From: Planctomycetota bacterium
Lineage (GTDB): Bacteria > Planctomycetota > UBA8108 > SXIK01
Direction: 5' to 3'
Assembly (NCBI GenBank): GCA_965223265.1
Contig: OZ244999.1
Span: 6,464,001 to 6,528,000 of the forward strand
DNA length: 64,000 bases
The translations under genes were made by a program, and so were the position numbers. Below are positions 12,878 through 50,168 of this stretch, piece after piece. Below the pieces are notes generated by a model. That model was not told where the DNA came from. It worked only from the letters and a program-made list of their open reading frames with translations, and made no database searches. Each line of letters starts with the position of its first letter. Positions within the stretch are counted from its first letter, which is position 1.

Positions 12878-13984
12878 CTATCGCCGTCCAGGCTGTCGTC
12901 GCCGTTTCTCCCTCGAGTTCTTCTTGGCAGCCCGCAGAACGACCTTGCCGGTGCCGCGCGTGATCTCACCAATGTGAGCCGCCGGAACACGGAGATCCCT
13001 CAAGTGCTGCAGGATAGAGTCGCAAAAAAAGCGCGAGACGACGAGGACCATACCGATTCCCATGTTGAAGACGCGGAACATTTCGCGGTCACTGATCGCC
13101 CCCTTCGTCTGCAACCAATCGAAGAGCGGCGGCACCTCCCAACTGCCCTTGCGAATCACGGCGTTGACCGAACCCGGGAGCACCCGCGGTACGTTCCCAA
13201 CAAGGCCTCCGCCAGTGATATGAGCCATGGCGTGGATCACACGCTTACGCCGGTACAGTGCCAGCAAACGACGGATGGGCTGGACGTAAATACGTGTGGG
13301 TTCGAGAAGGGCCTCACCGAGAGTGGTCTCAAGCCCGCGAGGGCGACTATGCAGTTTGGCGCGACTGAGCGAAATCACTCGTCGCACGAGAGAATAGCCG
13401 TTCGAATGCACACCGCTCGACGCCAAGCCGATGATCTGATCGCCCGGGGCGACGGCATCGCCGAGGATCAACCGCGACTTCTCCGCCACGCCGACGGCAA
13501 AGCCGGCAAGGTCGTAGTGCCCATTCGGGTAAAAGCCCGGCATCTCAGCAGTTTCACCGCCGAGGAGAGCGCATCCCGACTCGCGACAGCCCGCCGCGAT
13601 ACCCTTGACGATGTCGGCGACGGTCTGCGGCTTCAGCTTGCCGACGGCCACATAGTCGAGAAAGAAGAGCGGCTCGGCGCCTTGGACGATGAGATCGTTG
13701 ACGCACATCGCGACGAGGTCAACGCCAACCGTATCAGCGCGCCCAGTACGAAACGCGATCTCGAGTTTCGTTCCGACCCCGTCGGTGCAAGCCACGAGCA
13801 CGGGGTCCTTCAAGTCTCGGCGGAGCAGCCCCTTGGGGTAGTCGAGCTGGAAAAGCCCAGCAAATCCACCGTGGCTGCCGTTCAAGACCTGCGGAGTGTA
13901 CGTGCTGCGGACGTGATTCGTGATCAAGCGAACCGCGTTGTCACCGGCGTCGATATCGACGCCGGCGTCTTTGTAACTGACCAT
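12878..13984 (-). CDS. purM: Phosphoribosylformylglycinamidine cyclo-ligase (AIR synthetase)
   Basis: YKDAGVDI, TDGVGTK, GGETAEMPG, SSGVHSNGYSL, AHITGGG, FNMGIG. Confidence 0.96.
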   Translation of the reverse strand: MVSYKDAGVDIDAGDNAVRLITNHVRSTYTPQVLNGSHGGFAGLFQLDYPKGLLRRDLKDPVLVACTDGVGTKLEIAFRTGRADTVGVDLVAMCVNDLIVQGAEPLFFLDYVAVGKLKPQTVADIVKGIAAGCRESGCALLGGETAEMPGFYPNGHYDLAGFAVGVAEKSRLILGDAVAPGDQIIGLASSGVHSNGYSLVRRVISLSRAKLHSRPRGLETTLGEALLEPTRIYVQPIRRLLALYRRKRVIHAMAHITGGGLVGNVPRVLPGSVNAVIRKGSWEVPPLFDWLQTKGAISDREMFRVFNMGIGMVLVVSRFFCDSILQHLRDLRVPAAHIGEITRGTGKVVLRAAKKNSREKRRRQPGRR

Positions 13985-32021: not shown

Positions 32022-33962
32022 CTACAGCCCCAAGCGACGATTGTATACGAGCCATTCGATGAGAACGAAAACGAGCGCCACCGCAGCGAACCAACGCCAA
32101 TGCTCGGTGCGCCCCTCTCCTTCGGCTTGATTCACCGCCACTTCGAAGTCGCCAAAGTCGATCTTTTCCGCGGGCTCAAGGTTGGACTCTCGTGCGTTCA
32201 GCAACCCCACAGGCAGACGTTCGATCACTTGATCCGCCGCGATCACCTCGTACACACCGACCTCGCTCGGCGACGCGACCACCAAGTTGCCGTTACTCTC
32301 TCGCGTGGGCACCAACCGTTCACCGCTTGGCGAGCGAAACACGACGCCCTCTTGCACTTCGTCTTCGCGATCAGCTGGCCTGTACACCAACGCTTCGCCG
32401 CTACGGAAGCGACTGCGCGTGACCCCGCGGTTCTGTTGTTCGAGCCATTCCAGAGCATTCGCGAAAAAGATCGGGAACGAGTAGTGTTGATCGAATGGCC
32501 AGTTCGTGTCCATGACGTCGAAACCGATCACCACCGCGGTAGCAGGTCGTTGTCCGGGTCGCCGAAACAAATAGCTACCGATAATCGGCCCCTGATCAGA
32601 CTCGACGAGGGGGAGGAATCCATCCCGCTCCTCCAGGACGAACGAAGACTCGATGATCAAGTTCGTGTAGAGCAAGAATCGGTTCACAGGGTGCGACCGA
32701 TCCCAATCGATGATGAGAGGCAATTCGACGCGGCTCGAATCCAAAGTAGAATCTTCGCCGCGCTCGGTCTCAGCGTCGGGCGCACCTGGTAGGCAGCCGA
32801 CATAGAGCGATGGCAGCTGCGGCACGCCCGGGGGAGCCTTCTGGTTGAACAGGACAACGTCGGCACCAAGTTTGCGAGAAAGGTTCTCAGGTGGGACGTC
32901 GCGGGTCTCCTGTAGGTACTCGCCGAAGGCGACACGTCGCATGACGAGGAATGGACTGCCACGAAAAAGCGACTCGATCCAAAAATTGGGTTCACTCACG
33001 AGCAAGACGTTGATGCGCCGTTGTTCCTGCACGCGTACCCAAGCTCGGTCATCCAAATCGAGCGCGTCATCAACTTGGACCTCGACACGCGCAACGCCGT
33101 CCAGTCGATCACCGCAATCGAAGGTGACAGAGTGACTCTTGCCTGCGGCGAGCTCAACCTCCTTGACGTCGACGAGGTCGTCATCAAAAAAGAACTCCAC
33201 TTCGCCACTCCACGCCTTGCTACCGAAGTTCTTCAGTACGGCCAAAACTTCGATCCGCCGATCCACTTCGTAAGTTTGGCGCGCGTCACACTCGATCACG
33301 GCGACGTTAGCCACCGGTGCTGCGGCACTGAAGAACTTCACACGCTGTCGTTTCACCTCTTCAGGCAAACGACTCAAATCTCCGTAGCAACTGTCGCCGA
33401 GGACGTGCACCTCGGCGTCGACGAGAGTGGAGGCCAGCGCGGTACCGTCGACGAGGGAAGGCGTCAATCGCGTCGGCGACGCGACCGCAGCAACCGAATC
33501 GATCGTCGCTGAGAGTGCCGTGCGATCTCGAGTGAGCGCCGCACGCGTCTGCGTTCGCGCCCCGAACGACAGGATCGCGGCGCGGTCCTCCGGTTTCATC
33601 GAAGCGATTAGTTCGCGAGCGTGTTCTTTGATGCGATCGATCCGAGCCTGTCCACCTTCACGCGCCGCCATGCTAGCTGACTGATCGATGAGGAGAACCA
33701 CGTTACGTCCGGGCTCGAGTTTGCCGATCGTATGTGGTCTCCACAGCGCGAGGATCAACCCTACCAGAATGATCAGCTGCAGAAGCAAAAGGAGGCTTCG
33801 CCGCAGCCGTTGAAACGGCGCGTTAACATGCAGATCCTCGACAGATCGACGCCAAAGAACAGTACTCGACACTACGCGCTCCTGTCGACGCAGCTTCAAG
33901 AAGTAGAGCGCAATCAGGGCCGGAATGAATGCTAGCAGCGAATACACTGGGAGCCAGCTCAT
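32022..33962 (-). CDS. BatA-like N-terminal TM + vWA domain membrane protein
   Basis: LYFLKLRR..VSST.LW N-terminus, DQSASM MIDAS, ESNL motif and C-terminal TM (EWLVY). Confidence 0.85.
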   Translation of the reverse strand: MSWLPVYSLLAFIPALIALYFLKLRRQERVVSSTVLWRRSVEDLHVNAPFQRLRRSLLLLLQLIILVGLILALWRPHTIGKLEPGRNVVLLIDQSASMAAREGGQARIDRIKEHARELIASMKPEDRAAILSFGARTQTRAALTRDRTALSATIDSVAAVASPTRLTPSLVDGTALASTLVDAEVHVLGDSCYGDLSRLPEEVKRQRVKFFSAAAPVANVAVIECDARQTYEVDRRIEVLAVLKNFGSKAWSGEVEFFFDDDLVDVKEVELAAGKSHSVTFDCGDRLDGVARVEVQVDDALDLDDRAWVRVQEQRRINVLLVSEPNFWIESLFRGSPFLVMRRVAFGEYLQETRDVPPENLSRKLGADVVLFNQKAPPGVPQLPSLYVGCLPGAPDAETERGEDSTLDSSRVELPLIIDWDRSHPVNRFLLYTNLIIESSFVLEERDGFLPLVESDQGPIIGSYLFRRPGQRPATAVVIGFDVMDTNWPFDQHYSFPIFFANALEWLEQQNRGVTRSRFRSGEALVYRPADREDEVQEGVVFRSPSGERLVPTRESNGNLVVASPSEVGVYEVIAADQVIERLPVGLLNARESNLEPAEKIDFGDFEVAVNQAEGEGRTEHWRWFAAVALVFVLIEWLVYNRRLGL

Positions 33963-34858
33963 TTCACCAACCCCCGACGGCGTAGGTACTCAAGAACCAG
34001 GCGATCGAACGCCCGCGCAGTGCTCGTGGGTACGTAGTGCATGCCGCGCGCCGCGCAGTAGTTCCGAATCTCGGCGCAGAAGAGGTCGAGCGTTTTTTTA
34101 TAGCGTTTGAGCAGCGCCCCGGACACGGAGATTTCAGCTTCGCTCCCGTCCTCGACATCGACGAGGCGCAGGTCACCGGTAACCTCCGGCTCAATCTCCT
34201 GCGGCGCGAGGACGTGAAACACGAAGATCTCCGTCGATCGACCGCCGGCGAGAAGATAGCGCAGGCACGACTCAAACCCTTCCTTGTCGAGAAAGTCGGT
34301 GATAAAGATCACGAGCCCACCGCCTCGCTGGCTCAGCGAAAACTCCTTACACGAACGGGCTAAATCAGTTCCCGCCTCATCGGCCGAGTCCACCCCGCCA
34401 AGCACGTCGAACAGTCGCATGGTCTGCCGACGCCCTCGAGCCGGGCCGAACAGCGGAGTCATGCGCTCAGCGAAACCGGCGAGGCTGACGCGGTCTTGGT
34501 TCACCAGGCCGATGTATGCTAGAGCCGCAGCCAGTTTCTTGGCGTACTCTAGTTTGTTGGGGTCACCGAAGTCCATCGAAGCGCTACGGTCGATCAAGAT
34601 CCGCACGCTCAGATCCTCCTCTTCGAGAAAGATCTTCAGAAACAACCGATCCAAACGTCCGTACACGTTCCAGTCGAGATATCTGAGGTCATCCCCGGGC
34701 ACGTAAGCGCGGAAGTCCGCGAACTCGTTCGAGTACCCACGTCGCTTCGACAACCGATCGCCCTTCAGCTGACCAGCAATCATTCGCCGCGACACGAGCT
34801 CAAGCTGCTCGATCTTGGCGATGAATTCGTCGTCCAACAATCGCTGTTTGGTTGCCAC
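33959..34858 (-). CDS. DUF58 family protein
   Basis: EFADFRAYVPGDDLRYLDWN, DRSASM, ITDFL; start placed at GTG 34858. Confidence 0.9.
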   Translation of the reverse strand: MATKQRLLDDEFIAKIEQLELVSRRMIAGQLKGDRLSKRRGYSNEFADFRAYVPGDDLRYLDWNVYGRLDRLFLKIFLEEEDLSVRILIDRSASMDFGDPNKLEYAKKLAAALAYIGLVNQDRVSLAGFAERMTPLFGPARGRRQTMRLFDVLGGVDSADEAGTDLARSCKEFSLSQRGGGLVIFITDFLDKEGFESCLRYLLAGGRSTEIFVFHVLAPQEIEPEVTGDLRLVDVEDGSEAEISVSGALLKRYKKTLDLFCAEIRNYCAARGMHYVPTSTARAFDRLVLEYLRRRGLVK

Positions 34859-34918
34859 GTTAGCTGACCTATTTTCCCAGGAATTCCTCAGCAACCGAAT
34901 CGAGACTCGACGCCATGG

Positions 34919-35926
34919 TTAGCTTTCCGACACCTCAGTCGTCTTCTCCAGAATCTCATCGACGATCCGGTCAGTCTCGACGCCTTCAGCTTCGCCCTCA
35001 AAGTTGAGAAGAATGCGATGCCGCAGCACCGGATGCGTCGACCTCTTCAAGTCGTCAAAACTCACGTTGTAACGACCATCAAGAAGGGCGCGGATCTTTG
35101 CGGCGAGGAGAAGCGACTGTGCGCCGCGCGGGCTGGAGCCGTAGCGGACATACTGATTCGTCATTGGTACGGCGTAGTCCTTTCCGGGATGGGTGGAAAG
35201 GATCACCCGAATCGCATAATCCTTGACGTGCGGCGCAACCACTACTTGACGCACGAGATCTTTCCACTTTTCGATTTCGTCGCCGCCCATGACAACGGAG
35301 CGCTGATCGTCGAATGCATCCACCGTGCGCTCGAGCACGGTGCCAAGCTCCTCGCGCGTAGGGTAATCTACCAAAACCTTGAACATGAAGCGGTCGAGCT
35401 GAGCCTCCGGGAGTGGATACGTCCCGTCCATCTCGAGAGGGTTCTGCGTCGCCAAGACGATGAACGGCTTCTTCATGGCGTAGATCGTTCCAGCCACAGT
35501 CACACTTCGCTCCTGCATCGCCTCGAGCAGCGCAGATTGCGTCTTCGGTGTGGCGCGGTTGACTTCATCGGCGAGCACAATGTTTCCGAAAATCGGTCCC
35601 TTTTGAAACTCGAAGTGCTTTCGGCCGGTGTCGTCCTCGATGACGATGTTCGTACCAACAATGTCAGCTGGCATGAGATCCGGCGTGAACTGAATACGTC
35701 GAAACTCCAAATCGAGTACTTCGCTCAGCGTGCGCACCAAGAGTGTCTTGCCCAGTCCAGGGACGCCCTCAAGCAGGCAATTGCCGCCGGCAAACAGGGC
35801 GATGAGCACCTGATCGATGATGTGCTGCTGACCGACGATCATCTTGCTGATCTCGTCGCGCACGCGGCCGAATTGCTGGCGAAACTCGGCGGCCTGCTCT
35901 TCCATGGCGGACGCGGCTATACTCAT
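34919..35926 (-). CDS. MoxR-family AAA+ ATPase
   Basis: EGVPGLGKT, RIQFTPDLMPAD, LADEVNRA, ATQNP, YPLPEAQLDRF. Confidence 0.95.
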   Translation of the reverse strand: MSIAASAMEEQAAEFRQQFGRVRDEISKMIVGQQHIIDQVLIALFAGGNCLLEGVPGLGKTLLVRTLSEVLDLEFRRIQFTPDLMPADIVGTNIVIEDDTGRKHFEFQKGPIFGNIVLADEVNRATPKTQSALLEAMQERSVTVAGTIYAMKKPFIVLATQNPLEMDGTYPLPEAQLDRFMFKVLVDYPTREELGTVLERTVDAFDDQRSVVMGGDEIEKWKDLVRQVVVAPHVKDYAIRVILSTHPGKDYAVPMTNQYVRYGSSPRGAQSLLLAAKIRALLDGRYNVSFDDLKRSTHPVLRHRILLNFEGEAEGVETDRIVDEILEKTTEVSES

Positions 35927-36117: not shown

Positions 36118-39100
36118 CTAGCTCTCGTCCTCCTCCTTCTTCTCCCGAAGCGCTCTCTTCTTCGCTTCGAGAAGGCGTGATGTATAGGATCCCGCCGCCT
36201 CTGAGCTCGGCTCTGCCTCGGCTGCGGGCGCGGACTCTTTCGCCGGCTTGTCTGCACCGTGGCGAGCGCGCTCCGGCGTCACCTCGGTAAAACTCTCGAG
36301 CGCCGATGCGGCGTCGACCGGACGTGCGTCATCCTCGGCACGGGCATGCACCGCTCGGACACCCGCTGCGGCACGGCCAGAACCCACACGACGCGAAGCC
36401 GCTTCTGACGGTGCCGCGGAAGTCTCCACCGTTGACGGACTGTCAACCGAACCACCTCCGTAACGAGCGTCGGTCGATTCGCGCAGTTTCGCCTTGCGCT
36501 CGAGAAGCGTCGCCAACCGTCCTTCGGTAGGAGCTAGTTCGCGTTTTCTCACACCGATCAGCAAAGCGGCGTAGTTCACGGCCTTCAAGAATGCCTGACG
36601 GTAGTCGATGGCAACGCGGCGCACGAAGACGTCGATAAAAAACATCGCCAATGCCGCCAGAACCAGAGACTGCCAGACGTCACTGACGTCGTACGATGCC
36701 TCAAAGTCGCGGCGAAAGAACTGGGCGTCGGCAGGATCATCGAAGTAGACACCTCCTCCTGCGTCAGCGATCTGTCGCAAGAGTTCATGGTTGGTCTTCA
36801 AGCGTCGATACTCCCCTGAGTATGGCACACTCACGCCAGTGACGAACGAGCGTTGATTTCCGTCACGCTCGTAAACCGCGCTCAGCGTATAGGTACCCTT
36901 CTTCGGTGTCGCGAAGTTGGCGCGATAAGATCCAGGCGCAGTTTGCGGCATGTCGACTCGCTGATCTTTGAAGTCCGGTCCGACGACACTCACTTGCAGG
37001 TCGAGGTCTTTGATGAACCGGCCATCAAGACTGAGCGCGTCGAGCTGAATCGTCGCGGTGTCGCCTTCAATCGAGCGCGTGACGCGGAAACGCTCCTCGC
37101 CGCGCGTGCGCATGACCCACCGCAGGCACTGCGCCCAAAAGGGCTGAAACCCACTCCATTCGGCCCAGTTGCCTCCCCACCGCCGGCCGGCGTCGGACGT
37201 GAACGCGACCGCCTTGCCGACGCCGTAGGCCCAAGTCGCGAGCACGGGATCCTCCGTAGGATCGTCCTCGCTCGCGGGGTGAGTCAAAGGCACCGACGCG
37301 AGAGGCTTTCTGGTCGTCAAGACGTACCCGTTAAGTGGCGGCATGCCGCGCTGTCCAACACCCTGGAGAATCGGGTGGGAGCTGCGCAGATTTGGCGTGA
37401 ACGGCTCTTCTGAGATCAGAGACTTCGTCACCGTCGTTGTCTCACGGATAAAAATCTCCGGCAAATCGTCCGGTGACTGTAAGAAGTAGTAGTTTCCACC
37501 TCCGATCGCCGCCATGTTCTTCATCGCCGCCGGGATCGTGCCGTGTGCCCCATAGCATATGGTCGACACTGTGATCCCCGCGTTGACCATGTTGGAGAGG
37601 AGCGAGTTCGGGGGAGGCGTCGGATCGCCGTCGGACAAGACGATTAGGTGCTTGATCGATGCTGGCGTTGACTGTAGCCCGGTGAACGCCATCCGCATGA
37701 TGTTCTGAAACGACATCATGTCGCCGGGACTAAAATTCTGCAGAAGCCCGAGCATCTGCTGTCGCTTGCTGACAGGCGACATCGGGAAGAGCCACTGGTC
37801 CCCCGCATTGCCGTAGTAAAGAACACCGCAATAGTCACGCGGCGATAGAATCTTGATACCTTGCTGAAGGACCTGAACCGCCCAGTAGTTGCCGCGGGCC
37901 AGCTCACACGAGTGGACGACGAACGCGATGGCGCCGTTGGGCATGACCTTCTTGTTCTTGATGTCCATTTCAACGGGTAACAACCGTTCGATCGGCGTCG
38001 CCCGATAGCCGCCAGCGCCGAAACTGCTCTCACCGCCGATCATGACGAAGCCGACCCCGATCGTCTTGACGAGAGACTCGAACATCTTCATCGTGTCGAC
38101 GCTCAAACGGTCGGCTGGAATATCAGAGAGCACAATGGCGTCGTAACCGAAGTATCGCTCGATCGATGTCGGGAGCGTCTCTGGTGTGGCGATGTCCACG
38201 GAGATCTCTTCAGCTCGCAACGCATCCAGCAAAGCTTGGTCGCCTTCCTCGTCGTCGGCACAGAAGAGCACGGCAGGCGTGCCCTGCACACGCGTGAACC
38301 CGTACGCAACGTTGTTCTCGAAGATGTAGTCGTCCGTAGATCGCAGCGGCTCAACGCGCGCCTCGTAGTAGTTTTGGCCTACGCTTCCGATGCGACGACC
38401 GGAAAAATCGAAGACGTTCTTACCTGCCTTGAGAGGCTGGTTGGCACCCGAGACGAGCTGCCCATTTTCGTAAAGCTGCAGCTGCACCTCAGTCTCTATG
38501 GTCGAATCGACGACGACGCGGATGTCGAAAGGCTCACCAACATTCTGTTCAGGGTCGACGATAAGCTTTTCGACCGAGATTTCCGCGGGATACTCATAGG
38601 TGACCGGCACAACGTCGATGGTCACACCTTGAGCACGAGCGTTGTGGACCTCCTCCACCACCGACCCACTATTCTGATTGCCGTCCGAAAGCAGCACGAT
38701 GCGCTTGGCGTGGCGCTCCGGAAACGCTGCGGTGGCCAATCGGATAGCGGCGCCGATATTGGTAGCCTCTGGCTCGATCAGGGTCGAGAAACTCGTCAAA
38801 TCGAGCTCGAGCGGCCTTGGAGTCAGCTCGATGCCGGGTACGCGGCCAAACGCGAGGACGCCGACGCGATCGTCGGGTCGGCGCCCGTCGTTCGCCTTGC
38901 CATTGATGAACCGGCGCTCAGCGTCCCGCTGTTCAGCAGGCACACTCTCCGACAAGTCGGCGACGAAGATCACGGCGAGGTCGTCGTTCGTGCGAAAAAA
39001 CCGCGCTTCTGCGAGCGCCAGGACCAGTAGAATCACGACCACACAGCGCAAACCGAGGACCACCGCTCGTCGTACGGCAGGCAAGCCCGCGAGACTCCGC

Positions 39101-39183
39101 CGCGAAAAGAGAAAAATCAGGGGCACGAGCAGCAGCAGGAGCAGAAACCACGGCGAACCAAACGCCAACGAGAACTCGGTCAT
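36118..39183 (-). CDS. Large membrane protein with vWA, Ig-like, glutamine-amidotransferase-like and second vWA-like domains
   Basis: N-terminal TMs, DLSES and LLSDG, GGESSFGAGGY, VLSDGDP, YGVGKAVAFTSD, C-terminal TM. Confidence 0.85.
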   Translation of the reverse strand: MTEFSLAFGSPWFLLLLLLVPLIFLFSRRSLAGLPAVRRAVVLGLRCVVVILLVLALAEARFFRTNDDLAVIFVADLSESVPAEQRDAERRFINGKANDGRRPDDRVGVLAFGRVPGIELTPRPLELDLTSFSTLIEPEATNIGAAIRLATAAFPERHAKRIVLLSDGNQNSGSVVEEVHNARAQGVTIDVVPVTYEYPAEISVEKLIVDPEQNVGEPFDIRVVVDSTIETEVQLQLYENGQLVSGANQPLKAGKNVFDFSGRRIGSVGQNYYEARVEPLRSTDDYIFENNVAYGFTRVQGTPAVLFCADDEEGDQALLDALRAEEISVDIATPETLPTSIERYFGYDAIVLSDIPADRLSVDTMKMFESLVKTIGVGFVMIGGESSFGAGGYRATPIERLLPVEMDIKNKKVMPNGAIAFVVHSCELARGNYWAVQVLQQGIKILSPRDYCGVLYYGNAGDQWLFPMSPVSKRQQMLGLLQNFSPGDMMSFQNIMRMAFTGLQSTPASIKHLIVLSDGDPTPPPNSLLSNMVNAGITVSTICYGAHGTIPAAMKNMAAIGGGNYYFLQSPDDLPEIFIRETTTVTKSLISEEPFTPNLRSSHPILQGVGQRGMPPLNGYVLTTRKPLASVPLTHPASEDDPTEDPVLATWAYGVGKAVAFTSDAGRRWGGNWAEWSGFQPFWAQCLRWVMRTRGEERFRVTRSIEGDTATIQLDALSLDGRFIKDLDLQVSVVGPDFKDQRVDMPQTAPGSYRANFATPKKGTYTLSAVYERDGNQRSFVTGVSVPYSGEYRRLKTNHELLRQIADAGGGVYFDDPADAQFFRRDFEASYDVSDVWQSLVLAALAMFFIDVFVRRVAIDYRQAFLKAVNYAALLIGVRKRELAPTEGRLATLLERKAKLRESTDARYGGGSVDSPSTVETSAAPSEAASRRVGSGRAAAGVRAVHARAEDDARPVDAASALESFTEVTPERARHGADKPAKESAPAAEAEPSSEAAGSYTSRLLEAKKRALREKKEEDES

Positions 39184-40277
39184 CGCCTCAACCCTCTCCC
39201 ACTGAGAATGTCGCTCGCCTGCCTCGTCTCGGCAGGTTGAGGCGTCCCCTGCGACTCCGGACCGCTTGCCACACCATCCGCTGCAACGACGTCCGATGCG
39301 GGCGGCTCGCGCTGCACCGCCGCCGTCTCCCAGTCGAAAATCTGCACGCGATGGTTGCCGTAATCAGCGACATAAACTCGTCCGTCAGGCCCGACTTCGA
39401 TATCCCACGGAGTCGAGAGCCGCCCCGGCGCACTGCCAGGTCCTCCCCAAAAACCAAGGAACTCTTCGTCGGCGGAGAACTTCTGAATGCGATGATTCCC
39501 CCACTCGCAGACCAAAATCGCGCCCTTGTGGTCGACAGCAACCGCGATCGGATAGCGAAACTCGCCAGGCCCCTGGCCAAGTCGTCCCAGGGAGCTAACG
39601 TAGCGACCGTCAAGACTGAACCGCTGAACGCGGTGATTCGCGCAGTCGGCGACGAGGAGATACTCAGTGCCCTCCCGCACCTCGATCGCCATGCCCTGTG
39701 GTCGCTGGAACTGACCGGGCGCCCCTCCCATCTTCCCCCACGATTTGATGAACTCGCCGCTCGATGTGAACTTGAGGATGCGGTCGTTGAGACCACCGAA
39801 GTCGCCAGCATAAACCATCCCCTGTGCATCGACGACGACGTCGCGCCCGAACGTCAGCTGACCCGGTCCGAGCCCGTTTGAACCCCAGCGCGCGAGGATC
39901 TCGCGGCCTTGAGGATCATAGCGGAGGATGCGGCTGTAGTGGCTGTCGTTGACGAGAAGGTTTCCATTCGCCTCAACGGTCATGCCGACAGGTTGGCCAT
40001 ACTTGAACTCCGGCAGCGTCCAGACGTTCAAGACACTACCGTCGTCGGCCAGGTGCTGGATGCGCCCGCTGCGGTCGACCGCGTAGAAGCTTCCATCTTT
40101 GGCAACCGCAATAGCGCGTGGTTTGATGAATCGTCCCGGGCGCTGACCGCGCGCGCCGATGGTCGTCGGCGCCTCGATGGCACCCTCAACACTCGAAGCA
40201 TTCGCCATCCACCAAGCGACACCGCTGGCGATGAACGTGACGACGACGATGCCTCGCACCAAATTCAACACGAGCAA
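39180..40277 (-). CDS. Membrane-anchored NHL-repeat six-bladed beta-propeller protein
   Basis: Repeated G..PGQF..P..IAV...VAD..NHRVQ.F units after an N-terminal TM segment. Confidence 0.88.
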   Translation of the reverse strand: MLVLNLVRGIVVVTFIASGVAWWMANASSVEGAIEAPTTIGARGQRPGRFIKPRAIAVAKDGSFYAVDRSGRIQHLADDGSVLNVWTLPEFKYGQPVGMTVEANGNLLVNDSHYSRILRYDPQGREILARWGSNGLGPGQLTFGRDVVVDAQGMVYAGDFGGLNDRILKFTSSGEFIKSWGKMGGAPGQFQRPQGMAIEVREGTEYLLVADCANHRVQRFSLDGRYVSSLGRLGQGPGEFRYPIAVAVDHKGAILVCEWGNHRIQKFSADEEFLGFWGGPGSAPGRLSTPWDIEVGPDGRVYVADYGNHRVQIFDWETAAVQREPPASDVVAADGVASGPESQGTPQPAETRQASDILSGRGLRR

Positions 40278-40408: not shown

Positions 40409-42331
40409 TCACTCGTCTTCCTGATCACCGTTCAGCAATCGGTCGAGGTATCTCTGGACATGCGCCTTCCGCTCGATCGGGAGCGGTTCCGTCTCGACTT
40501 CCTCGGCGAGTTCCTGAATTGCCTGGCTGACATTGACCTTGCCTTCGAAGGTCGCTTCACCACGCATGAGTGGTCCATCGACATCGAACTTGCCAACAAT
40601 CATGCCGCGAGGATTGAGCTGCTTCGCCTTGATCTTCTCGCGCTTCATTGTGGTGTCATGCGGCGCCACGCCAGGCCCGGCGCCGTTCGCACGGCCCGGC
40701 CCACTGCCGGACTTGGGTCCGGTTCTCTGTGACTGTCCCAATGACAACTTCAATCCGTTTGCTGCGCTCCGACCGGAGCCCTGGGCCTGGCCGCTTCACG
40801 TGCCGCCAGGCTTGCCTTTGCCGCCCTGTCATGTGCCGCCGGGTTTCTGACCCTGCGCCAGTTTCTTACCGCAGTTCGCACAGCGATGCAGCTGTCCCAT
40901 CTGCGCCTTGGTCTGCTTGATGAGCTCCATCGCCTGTCGCAGCGCCGCCAGGTCCTGGGAAAGTTGGGCGAGGGAGTTCAAGTCCTGATCCATCCCCTGC
41001 ATGTTCGAAAGCATCTTGGCCATGTCAGCGCTGCTCATGCTCAGCGACTCCATCCCGCTGAGGCTGTTGGCAAACGCCCCCGACTGTCGCGACAGCCGTG
41101 CGAGCTCCTTCTGCAGCTGCTTGATCCGCTGCTTCTCCTTTTCGGTGAGCTGCTTCGGATCTTTCTTCGCGAGCTGCTGCAACTCCTTGGTCAGTTTGTC
41201 GAGCTCTGTCTTTGCCTTCGCGAAGTCGCCCTGTTTGAGCGCGGCTTGCAGCGCCTTCGTAGCGACCAGCGATTTGAGCGACAAACCCTCGAGCTTCTTG
41301 CGCATCTTGTCGAACTGGTCGAAACGGTTGGCGGCGAGACCCTGCTTGAGAATCTCTTCGCGGCGCGCGATTTCGAGGAGCCCCTTCTTCTGCGCGTCGC
41401 TCCTCTTGGCCGCGCCGTCGCCCTTTTGCTCCTGGGAACCTGGCTGCTGCCGGTTTGGCTTTTTTGCCTCAGGGTCATACTTGCTCAGTCGCTTCAACAG
41501 CTCCTGTGTTTCCTTCGAGGTGTTCTCGGCGGCCTTTGCCTCGAGGCGATCGAGCTCTTTTTTGAGTTTGTCTTTTTCCTCGTCGATGGCCTTCGCCATC
41601 TCCTCTTCGTGCGAAGCGCCTTCGGCCGTCGAAGAGAGTCCAAAAGGATCAAGAATCGGCAGGAATGTCAGCGCCACGGCAGCGAAGACGGGTACTACGA
41701 TCCACAAAGCACGGCGTCTTGGGGTGAGAGGGAACACCTGGCGGACGTCAGCGTCCAACAACGATCGCCCGGCGTCAGCGACGACGAGGCCGGCCCACTC
41801 GCTCTGGCCGCGGCGAGTCGAGTCTGCCGCAGACCGTACGTGCGCCGCGGCGACTTCGGGATGCTCAGCGAAGTACGCACTGGCGACGCGTTCCTTCATC
41901 GCCAGTCGGCGATCCGTCTCGACGGCAGTGTCGAACAGTCGAGGACGCCGAAGGAAAAGGGCTCGCACCATGGCGGCCACGAGACTCAGACCAGCGATTG
42001 CCGATACGATCTCGAGGCGGAAAACGCCCGGATAGAGGAGTCGGTCGACGACGATCAAAAGCGCGCTCACTGACGCGGCAAGAATCGCATAGGTGACGAG
42101 ATGGTGCCCAAAGCAAGCAAGCGTCAACCGACGGCGCCCCCGGCGAAGGAATTGCTCGAGGTGGGCTGCCGCATCGCGGCCCTCGGCAGCGCCAGGGTCT
42201 ACCGAGTGCCCCACTTTCGAGCCCCCAACCGAATCCCCCACTACCGAATCTCCCGCGGCCGATCGACCGTCAGCCTCAGGCAGCGGAGAATCGCGCATGG
42301 GAGAGGAATCGTCTCGTCTCGACATAGCCAC
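40409..42331 (-). CDS. Membrane-anchored coiled-coil protein of the MoxR/vWA operon; probably one 640-aa CDS with two in-frame TGA (putative selenocysteine) codons
   Basis: ORFs 40829..42331 and 40409..40753 are in the same frame, separated only by TGA at 40829-40831 and 40796-40798 in the context CANC...KPGGT*QGGKGKPGGT*SGQ; the end LPIERKAHVQRYLDRL resembles the usual C-terminus of such proteins. Confidence 0.7.
40766..40779 (-). promoter_or_regulatory. Candidate bacterial SECIS hairpin
   Basis: GCTCC-GGTC-GGAGC; stem starts 16 nt and the G-initial loop 21 nt after the second TGA. Confidence 0.45.
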
Positions 42332-42560
42332 CCCGACTCGATCAGGTCACGTAGGGCCCGGCGTCGTGTACCGGAAAATCTTTGACCGCAATGACTTCGG
42401 CCGAATCAACAGCGTCTGGACAGGCGCCGCGCAGCATCGTGGCATCCGCCCACGACCGGCTGCAGGCGTTATCATAAGTCGCCCCAGCGCCGCCGACAAG
42501 TTCTCCGGGGAATTCCCACAAAAAAAGCCATCGCGCCCGTGGCTCGCGGTACCCGCGTTC

Positions 42561-45428: not shown

Positions 45429-47432
45429 TCACTTCCGATCAAACAGCCTTTCGATCTCCCGTTGACTGAAAACGACAGCCGTCGGTCGACCATGAGGACA
45501 GTGTCGGAGATCCGAAGCGCACTCACCGCGCTGCAGGAGACTCCGGATGTCCTCGGCCTCCAAAGTTGTACCACCTTTGACGGCTCGCTTACACGCGATC
45601 GTTGCAGCGATTCGCCGCAGGGGACCCTCGACGCTACTGGGCATGTCCCGCTCGCGGGCCTCCCGACTCGTCGCTGTTTTCACTGCGCCGGCTTGAAAAT
45701 CGAGCAAAATCGCGCTGATCATCTCGCCGAGGTCAGTGGCTCCCGCCTCGCGATCGAAAATACTCGGGAGCGCGTGCACGGCAACCGATTCCGGTCCGAA
45801 CGCCTCCATCTCAAAACCGAAACGTGCCAGAAGCGTCGCCACTTCGTCCACGAGTGGCATCAGCTCCGTTGAGATCGTCACAACTTCAGGCACCAGCAGA
45901 CGCTGACTCTCGACGACACCGTCGACAAGACGTTGATACACCGATTCAAAGAGGATTTTCTCATGCAGAGCGTGTTGATCGATGATCATCAGCTGACCGG
46001 CCACCTCGACGATGATGTAGGTGTCGAAGACCTGGATCACCCGTGCGCCCGCCCCCGGGAGACCGCTGAGACGCGAGGAGTCGGCCGCCTCGGCCGCCGG
46101 GCCGCGACTCCCCACGCTGGTGTTTGTCGCCGCGACGCTGTCGGGCAGTGCTGACGGAGCCCCACCAGCGGTCGGAGTTTGGGGCGCGGGAGCCGCCTCG
46201 GCGCCGGTCTGCCGCCCTCTCGCACCGCCGTCGCTCTCTCCACCTTCCACTGCGACCGGCGGCAGCTCGAACGAAGCCACCGCTCCGTCTGCCGACGCCT
46301 GGTCGAGCACTTCGTCCGGCTGCTTCTGCTGTTGCTCCCAGCGAAACTCGCGGCCGGTGATTTCAGCGAAGAGATCTCCCATCGTCGGTGCCGGATCTGC
46401 ATCGGTTGAAGTTTCTTCCGACTCGGAGGTCGTTTCGCCGAGATTCTCCAGCGCCCGGCGAACGGCATGGTGGACAAGCCGGTAGATCGACGATGAGTCG
46501 CGAAAACGCACCTCCGTCTTCGTCGGGTGCACGTTGACGTCGATCTCTCCTCGCGGAAACTCAAGAAAAAGGTAAGCAATCGGTTGATAACCCGGAATGA
46601 GGAATCCTTGGTAGGCGCTCCGCAGCGCATGCGACAACGTTCGGTCCCGAATCCAGCGACCGTTGGCGAAGAAATGCTGCTCCTTGGCGTCGCGGCGCCG
46701 CGTACTTGGTGCCGCGACAAACCCGACGACAGACGGAAATTTGGGATCGTCGCCGGCTCGGATTTCGATCAAAGCTTCGCTCACCTTGCGCGAGACGAGT
46801 TGACGTACGCGCTCGCCCAAGTCGTCGGTTGCCGCCACGTCCAAAACTTCGCGGCCGCCATGCACGAGCCTGAACCTGACTCCGGGCGCGCCGAGGGCGA
46901 TACGCGTGACCTGTTGAATACAGTGCGACACCTCAGTCGCGGCGGCGCGCAAAAACTTGCGTCGCGCCGGAACGTTGTAGAACAGGTCGCGCACCTCAAC
47001 GCAGCTCCCCGGGGCTCCAGCGTGCGGCTCGGGAGCGTCCATCCCCGGCCGATATCGATACGGGTGTTCCGCGGCAGGCGGCTGCGACACGATCTCCGCC
47101 ATACTGACGGCAGCGACGCTGGCGAGCGCCTCACCTCGAAACCCAAGCGACGAAAACCCAAGCTCGTTGGCGCTAAGCTCTTCGTCTCGCAGTTTACTCG
47201 TGGCATGTCCGTGGAAAGCCAGCTCCAGCTCACCGGGTGCGATGCCGCAGCCATTGTCGCGCACACTGATCAGCTTCTTTCCTCCGTCCTCAAGGAGGAT
47301 CGTGACCTCAGTGGCATCCGCGTCCAGGCTGTTCTCGACGAGTTCTTTCACGACACTCGCCGGTCGCTCGATCACTTCTCCCGCCGCGACGCGATTGATG
47401 ATCTCCGGCGGTAAGATTCGAATCTTGGGCAT
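45429..47432 (-). CDS. mutL: DNA mismatch repair endonuclease MutL
   Basis: AAGEVIERP, GFRGEAL, DVNVHPTK, DQHALHEK, ACK, CPHGRP. Confidence 0.96.
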   Translation of the reverse strand: MPKIRILPPEIINRVAAGEVIERPASVVKELVENSLDADATEVTILLEDGGKKLISVRDNGCGIAPGELELAFHGHATSKLRDEELSANELGFSSLGFRGEALASVAAVSMAEIVSQPPAAEHPYRYRPGMDAPEPHAGAPGSCVEVRDLFYNVPARRKFLRAAATEVSHCIQQVTRIALGAPGVRFRLVHGGREVLDVAATDDLGERVRQLVSRKVSEALIEIRAGDDPKFPSVVGFVAAPSTRRRDAKEQHFFANGRWIRDRTLSHALRSAYQGFLIPGYQPIAYLFLEFPRGEIDVNVHPTKTEVRFRDSSSIYRLVHHAVRRALENLGETTSESEETSTDADPAPTMGDLFAEITGREFRWEQQQKQPDEVLDQASADGAVASFELPPVAVEGGESDGGARGRQTGAEAAPAPQTPTAGGAPSALPDSVAATNTSVGSRGPAAEAADSSRLSGLPGAGARVIQVFDTYIIVEVAGQLMIIDQHALHEKILFESVYQRLVDGVVESQRLLVPEVVTISTELMPLVDEVATLLARFGFEMEAFGPESVAVHALPSIFDREAGATDLGEMISAILLDFQAGAVKTATSREARERDMPSSVEGPLRRIAATIACKRAVKGGTTLEAEDIRSLLQRGECASDLRHCPHGRPTAVVFSQREIERLFDRK

Positions 47433-47615
47433 GCCTCTCTCCTCTCATCCCCCGAGCCTCTGCAAAAAACCGCAGGCAAGATGCAAGCCGCAAACCGGCT
47501 GGAACTCTCTTTCCCAGAGCTCTTCTGCAGGCACTCGGATCATTCTCTCAAGTGAGCGCCCTCTCACTGGCGCTGCGATTCCAGCCCGGTGTGATCCATC
47601 GGGCGAGCATCAAAG

Positions 47616-48485
47616 CTACTGCGACTGCAGCAGATGATTTGCACACACGAATGTGTTTCGAGCCAACATCGCGACAGTGATCGGTCCCACCCCACCCGGC
47701 ACTGGCGTAATCCAGCTAGCCTTTGGCGAGACCGAGTCATAGTCCACGTCCCCGACAACGCCTCGCCTGCCCGGAACACGATTGATGCCAACGTCGATCA
47801 CGATGACGCCGTCACGGACCATATCACCGGTGATCAATCCCGGTTTACCGACGGCAACCACAAGGATATCAGCATTTCGCGTATGCTCCTCGAGGCCGCG
47901 CGTCGCGATGTGACACGTCGTCAACGTCGCCATCTCCTGGAGCAAGCAAAGCCCAACCGGCTTGCCGACGATGTCGCTGTGGCCGACTACGACGACGTGT
48001 TTGCCTTCAACGTCGACCCCGGTCGAGTCAATCGCCTCGAGAACCGCAAGAGCGGTACACGGCCCTGTCGCATGTCGATCGTAGATCAACCGCCCCAAAT
48101 TCGTCGGATTGACACCCTCGACGTCCTTGGTGGCGTCGATCCTCTCCTGAACGGGAGCCGCCGGGATCTCGTCGGGAAGCGGCATCGTGAGTAGGATTCC
48201 CGTCACCGTCGGGTTGGCGTTGAGAGCATCTATGTGGCTAAAGAGAGCGTCGACCGTCGTCGTCTGATCGAGTGACAGATGCGTCAGCTGAATGCCCAGT
48301 TCAGCGAAACGCTCCTTCTGCTTTCGGATGTACACTTCGGACCCGGCGCTACCGCCGACCTGGACGGCCACTAAATTCGGGACCAGCCCGTCGCGTCGAA
48401 GCTTAGCGACCCCGAGACGCACCTCGCCGAGGATTCGCTCAGCGATTGCCTGTCCGTCGATCTCATTTGCCTTGGGCGCGTTCAT
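47616..48485 (-). CDS. folD: Methylenetetrahydrofolate dehydrogenase/cyclohydrolase
   Basis: KDVEG, PCT, SDIVGKP, IDVGIN, TPVPGGVGP. Confidence 0.95.
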   Translation of the reverse strand: MNAPKANEIDGQAIAERILGEVRLGVAKLRRDGLVPNLVAVQVGGSAGSEVYIRKQKERFAELGIQLTHLSLDQTTTVDALFSHIDALNANPTVTGILLTMPLPDEIPAAPVQERIDATKDVEGVNPTNLGRLIYDRHATGPCTALAVLEAIDSTGVDVEGKHVVVVGHSDIVGKPVGLCLLQEMATLTTCHIATRGLEEHTRNADILVVAVGKPGLITGDMVRDGVIVIDVGINRVPGRRGVVGDVDYDSVSPKASWITPVPGGVGPITVAMLARNTFVCANHLLQSQ

Positions 48486-49054
48486 CGACTCTTCCCATCG
48501 ACTCGATCCGTACGACTCCCCGCGTCACGCCGCCAGATTCCGCTACGCCCCCCGCTCTTTTCGACCACATGCGCGTGCTCGATGGACGCGCCGCGGTCGA
48601 CCGCTTTCACCATATCGTAGACGGTTAGAGCGGCCACAGTCGCCGCGGTGAAAGCTTCCATTTCGACTCCGGTACGCGCCACGACCGAGGTTTCCGCCTC
48701 GATCTGTAGTCGCGCGTCCTGGTTGCCCTCGCCTTCATCGGCAAGCCAACTGAACTCGATCTGGACGTGGTCGAGCGGCAACGGATGGCAAAGAGGAATG
48801 AGGTCTGCGGTGCGTTTCGCGGCTTGTATGCCGGCGATACGAGCGACTCCGAGAACACTGCCCTTCGGGTGGCTGTCGCTCGCAATCAAGTCGCGGGTCG
48901 CAGACAGCATGCGCACGACGCACCGCGCCCTAGCGCGCCGCGACGTCGGCTTCTTGTCCCCGACATCGACCATGCGGGCGGCCCCGTCAGGATCGACGTG
49001 CGAAAGCTCAGCGCCGGCCGCAGACTCCCGCGGCGATTTCGACTCTTGGCTCAT
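48482..49054 (-). CDS. moaC: Cyclic pyranopterin monophosphate synthase
   Basis: LSHVD..G.ARMVDV, LIPLCHP, TGVEMEA, YDMVKAVD, KSGG; start placed at ATG 49054. Confidence 0.94.
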   Translation of the reverse strand: MSQESKSPRESAAGAELSHVDPDGAARMVDVGDKKPTSRRARARCVVRMLSATRDLIASDSHPKGSVLGVARIAGIQAAKRTADLIPLCHPLPLDHVQIEFSWLADEGEGNQDARLQIEAETSVVARTGVEMEAFTAATVAALTVYDMVKAVDRGASIEHAHVVEKSGGRSGIWRRDAGSRTDRVDGKSR

Positions 49055-49142
49055 TGATTCAGCCGCGGAGAGGTGTGAATGCGTCGCGGCATCGGCGAGC
49101 GCGAGGCCATTTCTGAGCACCGATGGCCTGTAGCCCCCATGG

Positions 49143-50168
49143 CTAACGCCTACGCCGCAATACATAGTCGCCAAGAAGCTCCAGAGACTCACGCACGTCG
49201 CCAGCGCCTCCGCCGCCGGTCGGCGGAGTTCGGAGCGGACGCCCGACGATCTCTTTGAGTTCCTCCTTCGCGCTGCGGACAAACGCCTCCGCGCGATCCA
49301 AGCATTGATCGATGATGCCGTGCTCGAACACCATCGTTTGGATACGAGCCTCGACTTCAGTCGACAGCGGTCGAGCCAGCTCATCGCGAAGACTCGCTGC
49401 CTCACGACTTGAAACGTTTTCCAACAAATAGATCAGCGGTAAAGTCACCTTGTTCTGGCGTAGATCGCTCCCGAGGCTCTTACCGGCGACGACTTCAGTG
49501 CCGGAATAGTCAAGGCAGTCATCGACGATCTGGAACGCCATGCCGAGGGCGTTTCCAAAGCGGTGCAGTCGATCGCAATCGGGCGCGCCGAAACCGGCCA
49601 GCGTCGCGCCAACGCGACACGCTACGGCGTAGAGAATCGCGGTCTTTTGATGGATGATTTCGAAATAGTGCGTCTCGTCCATCTCCGGCTGAAAACGACT
49701 TTGCAGCTGCAGCAGTTCGCCGGCACAAATGGTCTGGGTGGTCTTCGAGAGCAGCGTCGCCATCCCGTCGACGTGGGTCGATAGATGAAACGCGCGCGAG
49801 TAAATAAAATCACCGATCAGAATCGCGGCCCGTTCACCCCATCGTCGATGCACGGTCTCGAGGTTTCTGCGAATGAGCGCAGCATCCAGTACATCGTCGT
49901 GAACCAAAGTCGCGGTGTGAATCAACTCGATCACTGCGCCGATGCGGATGTGGTCCCGACTGCACTCGTCGCCGTTGAGCCGACCGCAGAGAAACACTAG
50001 GGCCGGACGCAATTGCTTGCCGCGAAATCGAGCGACGTGCTGCAAGATGTCATCGAGAATGTCATCGTCGTGAGCAAACTCGCGACTCAGAAAATCGTCG
50101 AGCGCTCCGAGCTCGCGCCGAATCGGCTCGTAGATCAATTGAAGTTGTGGGCCTGCCTTTATGTCCAT
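49143..50168 (-). CDS. Long-chain polyprenyl diphosphate synthase (IspB/HepT-like)
   Basis: GKQLRP, LVHDDVLD, FQIVDDCLD; start placed at ATG 50168. Confidence 0.9.
   Translation of the reverse strand: MDIKAGPQLQLIYEPIRRELGALDDFLSREFAHDDDILDDILQHVARFRGKQLRPALVFLCGRLNGDECSRDHIRIGAVIELIHTATLVHDDVLDAALIRRNLETVHRRWGERAAILIGDFIYSRAFHLSTHVDGMATLLSKTTQTICAGELLQLQSRFQPEMDETHYFEIIHQKTAILYAVACRVGATLAGFGAPDCDRLHRFGNALGMAFQIVDDCLDYSGTEVVAGKSLGSDLRQNKVTLPLIYLLENVSSREAASLRDELARPLSTEVEARIQTMVFEHGIIDQCLDRAEAFVRSAKEELKEIVGRPLRTPPTGGGGAGDVRESLELLGDYVLRRRR

Follow-up and report, generated by a model that had tools for sequence, protein, structure and literature searches.

A Planctomycetota protein family with one to three putative selenocysteines and proposed nested recoding hairpins

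The window analyzed here, a stretch of 64,000 nucleotides from a Planctomycetota bacterium (GenBank contig OZ244999.1, positions 6,464,001 to 6,528,000), carries on its minus strand, between positions 42331 and 40409, two consecutive open reading frames (ORFs) which very probably form a single gene. This gene would encode a selenoprotein of 640 residues with selenocysteine (Sec, U) at positions 501 and 512, both specified by UGA codons that are recoded with the aid of hairpins. That we are dealing with a genuine, previously unannotated selenoprotein gene can be stated with high confidence. Together with its relatives it makes up a family from Planctomycetota whose Sec forms would contain between one and three Sec and whose recoding hairpins are proposed to be nested in an unusual way. 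Judged by the alignments, the gene appears to be the Sec form of a large family in which CxxC pairs occupy the corresponding position of the Cys-only forms.

The two ORFs (500 amino acids, GTG start, 42331..40829; 114 amino acids, TTG start, 40753..40409) share one frame interrupted by TGA at codons 501 and 512, and re-reading of the frame bore out the initial annotation on this point. The 640-codon gene is terminated by a further TGA at 40411-40409. If read through, the peptide runs ...HRCANCGKKLAQGQKPGGT, first TGA, QGGKGKPGGT, second TGA, SGQAQGSG.... Each TGA follows the motif KPGGT, and the two copies (AAA CCC GGC GGC ACA TGA and AAG CCT GGC GGC ACG TGA) indeed differ at synonymous third positions only. 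The true start of the gene is probably best regarded as uncertain, because residues 1-55 are not conserved.

In total, 37 genes of the family were read: the window's own, 13 from 40 related genomes searched in six frames with the read-through protein (each of the 13 coming from a different genome), and 23 from a profile search of a phylum sample of 401 genomes, for which 150 of 265 matches were listed. The family was found in 176 of these 401 genomes and, among the matches listed, a TGA lies within the match in 37 genomes. Seventeen of the 37 genes have two in-frame TGAs at the sites, two have three, seven have one and 11 have none. Ten of the 13 relatives from the 40 genomes are two-TGA forms; the others are one TGA-then-Cys, one Cys-then-TGA and one Cys-only form. 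The 23 further loci comprise six two-TGA, two three-TGA and five one-TGA genes as well as ten genes without TGA. In the ten two-TGA relatives the TGAs stand at aligned sites although these proteins are only 24-41% identical to the window protein, a recurrence far beyond chance. An alignment of 13 sequences (A1) shows no variation at C484 and C487, and its columns 501 and 512 hold Cys or Sec in at least 90% of the sequences. Furthermore, the frame is conserved beyond the UGAs as far as the C-terminus, where P618 and E620 are invariant.

Sec and Cys replace each other at both sites. All seven one-TGA genes have Cys at the other site; among them are Sec-then-Cys forms (locus L021, GAGGU..GAGGC; L034, EPU..GRC) and Cys-then-Sec forms (GKC/GTC..GGTU in L023, L033 and L053). 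Nine of the 11 genes without TGA (L017, L035, L036, L038, L044, L047, L048, L051, L055) are Cys-rich and contain CxxC pairs, e.g., CKSCGKAGQCNSQGKCGSC in L017; Cys forms of the family are uninterrupted ORFs of 490-660 amino acids. The relatives are thus single frames with a conserved TGA or a Cys at both positions, as the initial annotation had anticipated for a selenoprotein. The two three-TGA genes, L050 (genome G395) and L052 (G274), read CPSUG...PSGU...GSGU: here the second Cys of the knuckle is itself encoded by TGA (CxxU), and two further Sec would follow within about 20 residues. A conserved in-frame UGA, Cys-containing homologues and a frame kept downstream together make up the classic signature of a selenoprotein family. 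The remaining two genes, L045 (G209) and L046 (G048) from AT-richer genomes, have neither Cys nor Sec in this region and possess long GQ repeats instead; therefore, some of what the family does, at least, can be accomplished without the Cys/Sec cluster.

These comparisons bear directly on the alternative that the gene is broken or split, the 500-residue protein ending at codon 501 and the 114-codon ORF being untranslated or separate. Gene callers indeed produce from this family hypothetical proteins of 444-478 amino acids and many short C-terminal ORFs, as would be expected of separate genes, and the database relatives of the N-terminal part end at this length. However, both TGAs recur in 17 of the 37 genes at the low identities given above, the C-terminal domain and its frame are conserved, and relatives of the Cys form are encoded by uninterrupted ORFs. 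Over the 33 nt from one TGA to the other the repeat is preserved, its copies differing at synonymous sites alone, a covarying hairpin follows (see below), and the TTG ORF begins 13 codons past the second TGA, within conserved sequence. We therefore regard a split gene as very improbable. A profile of the C-terminal 175 residues retrieved 2753 representative proteins at E ≤ 1e-3 (993 at E ≤ 1e-10); among the best 150 of these 2753, 86 are full length (at least 450 amino acids), whereas 45 are ORFs of at most 200 amino acids starting just past the Sec sites. The latter appear to be orphaned tails of Sec forms.

The source genome (9.18 Mb, one contig) encodes the complete Sec machinery: tRNA-Sec (70 bits against a cut-off of 47; SeC(tca) according to ARAGORN), SelA (474 bits), SelB (wing domain, 68 bits) and SelD (309 bits). 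All four components are located outside the window, in line with the earlier remark that the window contains no sel genes. A weak match to the selD model at 13430-13699 of the window (minus strand; E 4.8e-4, its 21 bits falling well short of the cut-off of 125) probably represents not SelD but another superfamily member, which we take to be PurM/ThiL-like. Co-occurrence with SelA was tested in 36 genomes. Each of the 25 other genomes that carry TGA forms encodes a strong SelA (at least 409 bits), and so do 8 of the 11 genomes with forms lacking UGA, the three without a strong SelA being G258 (a 44-bit match), G376 and G370 (none). The genome also possesses a second selenoprotein gene, encoding FdhA (G000:C1:8399754-8401757, L060; 740 bits), with one in-frame TGA in the context CSRAUH.

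Reading of the UGAs as something other than Sec, be it that near-cognate tRNAs insert Trp, Cys or Arg or that UGA is reassigned to Gly or Trp locally or genome-wide, has in its favor that Gly would suit the Gly-rich context. Against it, UGA terminates this very gene and closes 15 of the 28 long stop-to-stop frames in the window, so that TGA is a normal stop here, as stated in the initial annotation. Moreover, the sites align with Cys in the relatives, not with Gly or Trp, SelA is encoded in all 26 genomes with TGA forms (the window's genome included), and the hairpin loop described below matches that of the bona fide selenoprotein gene of the same genome. We give this explanation very little credence. 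An error of sequencing or assembly that created the TGAs from TGC or TGG is hardly conceivable: positions 40600-41000, with both codons, are identical in contigs from four public runs (two samples of one study, which possibly is the source of the assembly), and the same TGAs occur in the assemblies of 25 other genomes.

The last UGA of the Sec-bearing genes is followed by a hairpin with the tetraloop GGUC, GGUU, AGUU or GGUA (RNAfold and direct reading), which starts at +22 to +31 after the UGA, mostly at +25. In the window this is hairpin 2, GCUCC-GGUC-GGAGC, and the initial annotation had located it correctly, with the loop G 21 nt after the A of the second TGA. With the criterion of a stem of at least five contiguous pairs closing a [GA]GU[ACU] tetraloop between +20 and +32, such a hairpin was detected in 20 of the 26 Sec-bearing genes, compared to a mean of 1.8% of synonymous shuffles, which preserve the protein sequence and the codon usage of each gene. 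Covariation was counted over 24 aligned sequences (L040 and L054 were excluded, as there is no such hairpin there). In these, 91.7% of the cells are paired versus 62.2% in the shuffles, a value reached by none of 500 shuffles, and compensatory changes on both sides were found in all seven pairs of hairpin 2 (47 cells versus 15 expected). Sliding the partner by 1-3 columns lowered the pairing to 34-49%. This hairpin with G in its apical loop is therefore the candidate selenocysteine insertion sequence (SECIS) of the last UGA; for the earlier UGAs the case is weaker. The FdhA gene of the same genome has GGUUGCC-GGUCU-GGCAGC after its UGA, with the GGUC loop starting at +22. In E. coli fdhF, SelB contacts the G and the U of the loop. 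In L021 and L034, which have Sec at site 1 only, the GGUC hairpin follows directly after that UGA. Part of the 'GRGRG' conservation after site 2 in the relatives is the SECIS itself (CGC GGU CGC).

A covariance model of hairpin 2 run against the whole genome scored its own site at 34.7 bits, the next site at 30 bits and others more weakly; in the four matched sites that were read, the frames do not look coding. The 30-bit site (G000:C1:3826775-3826822, minus strand, L070; TGA...GGCCGC-GGTC-GCG; rough E 0.001), in an Arg-rich frame with many TGA that looks non-coding, is probably due to chance. The FdhA SECIS was not recovered in this whole-genome search, and the model is therefore family-specific and uninformative on other selenoproteins. 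Rfam produced over 40600-40950 only three matches at chance level, all far below their gathering scores.

The sequence after the first UGA is organized differently. The initial annotation had recognized only a weak stem here, and this was wrong: GCCUGGC...GCCAGGC together with two inner pairs encloses the second TGA (hairpin 1). The same layout with unlike stems is found in relatives, e.g., GGAGGGACC-UGAG-...GGUUCCUCC, GGGAGG-CUGAC-CCUCCC, GCCAGG-GCUGA-CCUGGC, GGAAGGAC.GUUU-GUG-AAAC.GUUCUUCC and GCCCGGC-11 nt-GCCGGGC. Where a UGA is preceded by another one, the 45-nt segment centered on it exceeds its synonymous shuffles in stability (n = 21, mean z = -1.66), whereas segments on first or only UGAs have no excess stability (n = 26, mean z = -0.20). 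At least six contiguous pairs around a loop holding the next UGA occur in 14 of the 21 cases versus 22% of shuffles; the z-score of hairpin 1 in the window is -2.2 against synonymous shuffles. In two members of one genus, L041 (G033) and L043 (G030), the second UGA lies in GGAACC-UGA-CAGGGUUCC and GGAGCC-UGA-CAGGCUCC, respectively; the residues beside Sec change from GTUQGS to GAUQAP, and the pairing of the stem is kept. L023, L033 and L053, with Sec at site 2 only, have no hairpin 1. As it is missing where there is no TGA upstream, the hairpin centered on the later UGA is probably the SECIS of the earlier one. Judged by the position of the GGUC hairpin directly after the lone site-1 UGA in L021 and L034, a hairpin at about +25 seems to be required by every UGA.

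The RNA support for these recoding signals is comparative, and it also has to be read against the possibility that there is only one SECIS, i.e., that SelB is brought to both UGAs by the GGUC hairpin and does not bind hairpin 1. Hairpin 1 would then fold away the 27 nt that separate UGA1 from the GGUC hairpin and thus bring the latter near UGA1, and/or hide UGA2 from release factor 2 up to the arrival of the ribosome. A GGUC-type loop, as in the FdhA SECIS of this genome, is present on hairpin 2 only, the loops of hairpin 1 vary in sequence and in size (3 to 13 nt), and the end of hairpin 1 is separated from the start of hairpin 2 by as little as 3-6 nt in the window, all of which would fit a single SECIS. 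On the other hand, each hairpin stands at the usual SECIS distance from its own codon: hairpin 1 begins 17 nt past UGA1 and hairpin 2 16-18 nt past UGA2 (outer and core stem, respectively). The GGUC hairpin directly after the sole UGA of L021 and L034 speaks against a single SECIS as well. This explanation is rather unlikely in our opinion, and we prefer the assignment of one hairpin to each UGA.

The features of the gene and of its surroundings are compiled in Table 1.

Table 1. Features of the putative selenoprotein gene and of its neighborhood (positions within the window)
Feature	Position	Strand	Remark
Predicted single 640-codon selenoprotein gene with terminal TGA	40409..42331	minus	GTG start 42331; relatives align over the full length, across the TGAs
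Hydrophobic segment 1, residues 77-95	42047..42103	minus	Kyte-Doolittle 2.18; AlphaFold helix
Hydrophobic segment 2, residues 108-126	41954..42010	minus	Hydropathy; AlphaFold helix
Hydrophobic segment 3, residues 209-227	41651..41707	minus	Kyte-Doolittle 2.48, flanking charges; AlphaFold helix
Helical stalk, K/L/A/Q/E-rich, residues about 232-479	40895..41638	minus	AlphaFold helices, pLDDT mostly 70-87
CxxC knuckle C484-A-N-C487	40871..40882	minus	Invariant in the 13 A1 sequences; CPxCGK in most relatives
Gly-rich disordered arm with both putative Sec, residues 485-598	40538..40879	minus	pLDDT below 50
UGA codon 501, putative Sec site 1	40829..40831	minus	Cys/Sec in at least 90% of alignment sequences (A1 and A2)
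UGA codon 512, putative Sec site 2	40796..40798	minus	Within the apical loop of hairpin 1
Hairpin 1, GCCUGGC.GC-ACGUGAA-GC.GCCAGGC	40785..40811	minus	+21 to +47 from UGA1; proposed SECIS of UGA1
Hairpin 2, GCUCC-GGUC-GGAGC	40764..40781 (core 40766-40779)	minus	Loop +25 to +28 from UGA2; candidate SECIS of UGA2
C-terminal helical hairpin, residues 601-634	40430..40531	minus	pLDDT 74-88; motif E.EPLP.E..........L
Two M16 peptidase genes	45318-42561	minus	Upstream, 230-nt gap to the selenoprotein gene
Promoter-like site TTGTCG-17-TATGAT	42471..42499	minus	In the 230-nt gap; consensus match only
NHL-repeat beta-propeller with N-terminal hydrophobic anchor	39180..40277	minus	PF01436, E 3.5e-28; conserved downstream neighbor
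vWA-vWA-GATase1_like membrane protein gene	36118..39183	minus	Domain scan
MoxR AAA+ (35926-34919); DUF58 (34894-33959); BatA/vWA (33962-32022)	32022..35926	minus	Domain scan

The hydropathy profile and the AlphaFold models are consistent with the membrane anchor, coiled coil and flexible CxxC/U/U arm proposed in the initial annotation. The whole protein was modeled with a 13-row alignment (mean pLDDT 67), and a separate model of the C-terminal 175 residues (pLDDT 63) agrees with it. In the whole-protein model, the pLDDT of the C-terminal helical hairpin is 74-82. Arg clusters are present before segments 1 and 3 and after segment 2. According to the positive-inside rule, the last 410 residues, i.e., everything after segment 3, should be extracytoplasmic. 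The predicted product has four thiol or selenol groups (C484, C487, U501 and U512), all of them located at the start of the disordered Gly-rich arm. Many Cys-only relatives have two or four CxxC units there, some of them reading CxxCxGxG.

This layout resembles two known domains. With DUF4175 (PF13779) the family shares N-terminal membrane helices followed by a long helical Gly/Gln-rich region, and two members gave weak matches to it (P0008, E = 8.5e-4; one of the 13 A1 members, E = 1.6e-3). Membership was rejected, as the best score, 17.9 bits for P0008, compares with a gathering score of 27.3 and the window protein has no match. DUF4175 is tied to aerotolerance and is found beside MoxR/DUF58/BatA genes; we know of no Sec in DUF4175 proteins. 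A similarity to the DnaJ CxxCxGxG zinc finger is seen in several Cys-only proteins, e.g., P0023, P0044 and P0076, which have two to four CxxCxGxG repeats, and in the Sec forms xGxG comes after every U. In contrast to the DnaJ zinc finger, the two U of the window protein lie outside the CxxC pairs, and the Pfam model DnaJ_CXXCXGXG matched neither ten representatives (E ≤ 0.01) nor six Cys-rich ones (E ≤ 1). P0076 is a full-length member with an N-terminal DUF772 transposase domain (E 1.4e-15), which probably reflects a chimeric gene call or an insertion.

The gene was initially described as heading a MoxR/vWA operon. It is indeed the first in position before these genes (Table 1), but it is itself preceded, 230 nt upstream and in the same orientation, by the two M16 peptidase genes; the promoter-like site in the gap is no more than a consensus match. 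In the flanks of 1.5 kb to which the neighbor counts refer, an NHL gene lies downstream in 23 of the 37 related loci, a vWA-GATase gene is found in 13 and an M16 gene in six. Further upstream on the minus strand (window 45429-49405) there are ORFs whose products are candidate MutL, FolD and MoaC proteins; from their motifs we take them to be MutL-like (45429-47432), FolD-like (47616-48485) and MoaC-like (48482-49405).

We propose that each UGA would be recoded by the bacterial SelB pathway via a hairpin in the coding sequence just downstream. Hairpin 1 would serve UGA1 and hold UGA2 in its apical loop, the ribosome would have to melt it before UGA2 can be read, and UGA2 would then be served by the GGUC tetraloop hairpin at +25. 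The predicted product has three N-terminal membrane helices, a stalk of ~250 residues, the disordered CxxC/U/U arm and a small C-terminal helical hairpin, with stalk and arm presumably outside the cytoplasm. The chances that the arm is a redox-active or metal-binding site, containing a selenenylsulfide, a diselenide or a held metal, appear to us to be even. Its function is deduced from its chemistry and its gene neighbors: the arm might act as a redox switch or handle metal in concert with the NHL propeller and the products of the downstream vWA/MoxR genes. A more far-reaching version is put forward only tentatively, as we doubt it more than we believe it. According to it, the recoding signals are truly nested, hairpin 1 recruiting SelB for UGA1 and shielding UGA2 from release factor 2 until it is melted, with subsequent hand-over to the GGUC SECIS, and the protein is an extracytoplasmic CxxC+U+U redox sensor or metal carrier of an NHL/vWA/MoxR 'aerotolerance-type' machinery.

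Several points weigh against these proposals. The strict tetraloop test was failed by 6 of the 26 genes. The loops of hairpin 1 (ACGUGAA, GUGAA, CUGAC, UGAG) are devoid of the GGUC motif, and its register differs between clades, so that a column-wise count of covariation is impossible. In the genes with three UGAs the hairpins are weak, with z between -0.5 and +0.4, and the folding energy of the window's own sequence is ordinary (z = -0.47 with dinucleotide shuffles and -1.1 with synonymous shuffles). For the whole region, folding compared to synonymous shuffles is likewise weak in the GC-rich members (mean z = -1.3) and strong only in L019, L020, L039, L041 and L042. The hairpin criteria were set after the sequences had been seen, and the related genomes are not independent of each other. 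SelA is common in the phylum sample, and its co-occurrence is a necessary condition rather than a sharp test. Read-through and the presence of selenium in the product are deduced from sequence. Finally, the pLDDT below 50 gives no structural backing for a defined metal site in the Sec arm, and in Pfam scans of Cys-form representatives no hidden Markov model tied the Cys/Sec cluster to a known zinc finger.

As far as literature and database searches reach, the family is undescribed, in agreement with the first impression from the sequence. The window protein gave only coiled-coil noise against Pfam and NCBIfam release 20.0 (YibL, 17.7 bits with a cut-off of 110; CorA, 10 bits), and none of the 13 A1 members matches a relevant Pfam or NCBIfam model, curated selenoprotein families among them. 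The families of Haft and Tolstoy 2025 (mSystems, 'Novel selenoprotein neighborhoods') should be contained in NCBIfam 20.0. A search for related loci with the single window protein found none, and a word-indexed protein search produced no match for residues 440-641 and only six truncated or distant proteins for the whole protein. A search with a 5-row alignment led to named relatives which in five of five cases come from Planctomycetota or Planctomycetia metagenome-assembled genomes, and the relatives of the N-terminal part are named 'hypothetical proteins'. No membrane/coiled-coil selenoprotein of Planctomycetes was found in the accessible parts of Zhang 2006, the Haft and Gwadz preprint, deep-Sep, BSepDB and a 2026 review of 119 prokaryotic selenoprotein families, and these parts mention neither a GGTU motif nor a UGA inside a SECIS loop. 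The available text of a paper on Porphyra Planctomycetes (PMC4807772) does not mention the family, although the candidates of its Table S9, from two Planctomycetes, could include a member. Literature searches combining selenoprotein with MoxR or von Willebrand returned nothing relevant among the matches listed, and among the matches listed for several UGAs combined with SelB, all studies were on eukaryotes or archaea.

With the bacterial formate dehydrogenases FdhF/FdhA the gene shares the in-frame UGA and a hairpin in the coding sequence with an apical GGUC at about +22 to +28, as well as Cys homologues and the Sec machinery in the genome. FdhA is, however, an unrelated protein; here, two or three UGAs follow each other at distances of only 7-12 codons, and the hairpin after the earlier UGA has the later one in its apical loop. 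No bacterial precedent for a UGA in the loop of the preceding hairpin was found among the literature matches listed. Archaeal VhuD/FrhD (two Sec), bacterial UxxU metal-binding and FmdB-family zinc-ribbon proteins and eukaryotic SELENOP likewise have two or more Sec in a site that is rich in Cys and presumably metal- or redox-active. In archaea and eukaryotes the SECIS is located in an untranslated region, so that multiple UGAs pose no spacing problem, whereas in bacteria it must sit just after each UGA. In contrast to those archaeal and eukaryotic multi-Sec systems, each UGA thus would need a local element here. According to the available part of the 2026 review, a small subset of the 119 families has two or three Sec, and its table includes UxxU forms. 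The arrangement CxxC-x13-U-x10-U in a disordered Gly-rich arm, combined with the membrane/coiled-coil layout, is unlike the entries seen in this part of the table.

The family has consequences for the annotation of Planctomycetota genomes. Gene callers split it into N-terminal hypothetical proteins and many C-terminal ORFs of ~100 amino acids, and TGA occurs in at least 37 of the 176 family-bearing genomes; therefore, the selenoproteomes of Planctomycetota are undercounted. Genes in which two or three UGAs stand 7-12 codons apart offer a natural test of SelB-dependent recoding and, if the proposed assignment is true, nested hairpins would solve the difficulty that Sec codons in close succession pose to bacteria. 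Clusters of the MoxR/vWA/BatA type are widespread, and little is understood of them; a conserved neighbor with a Sec/Cys cluster points to redox or metal chemistry as part of their role. If our tentative nested reading is correct, its arm would give the long-unexplained NHL/vWA/MoxR cluster a chemically reactive component.

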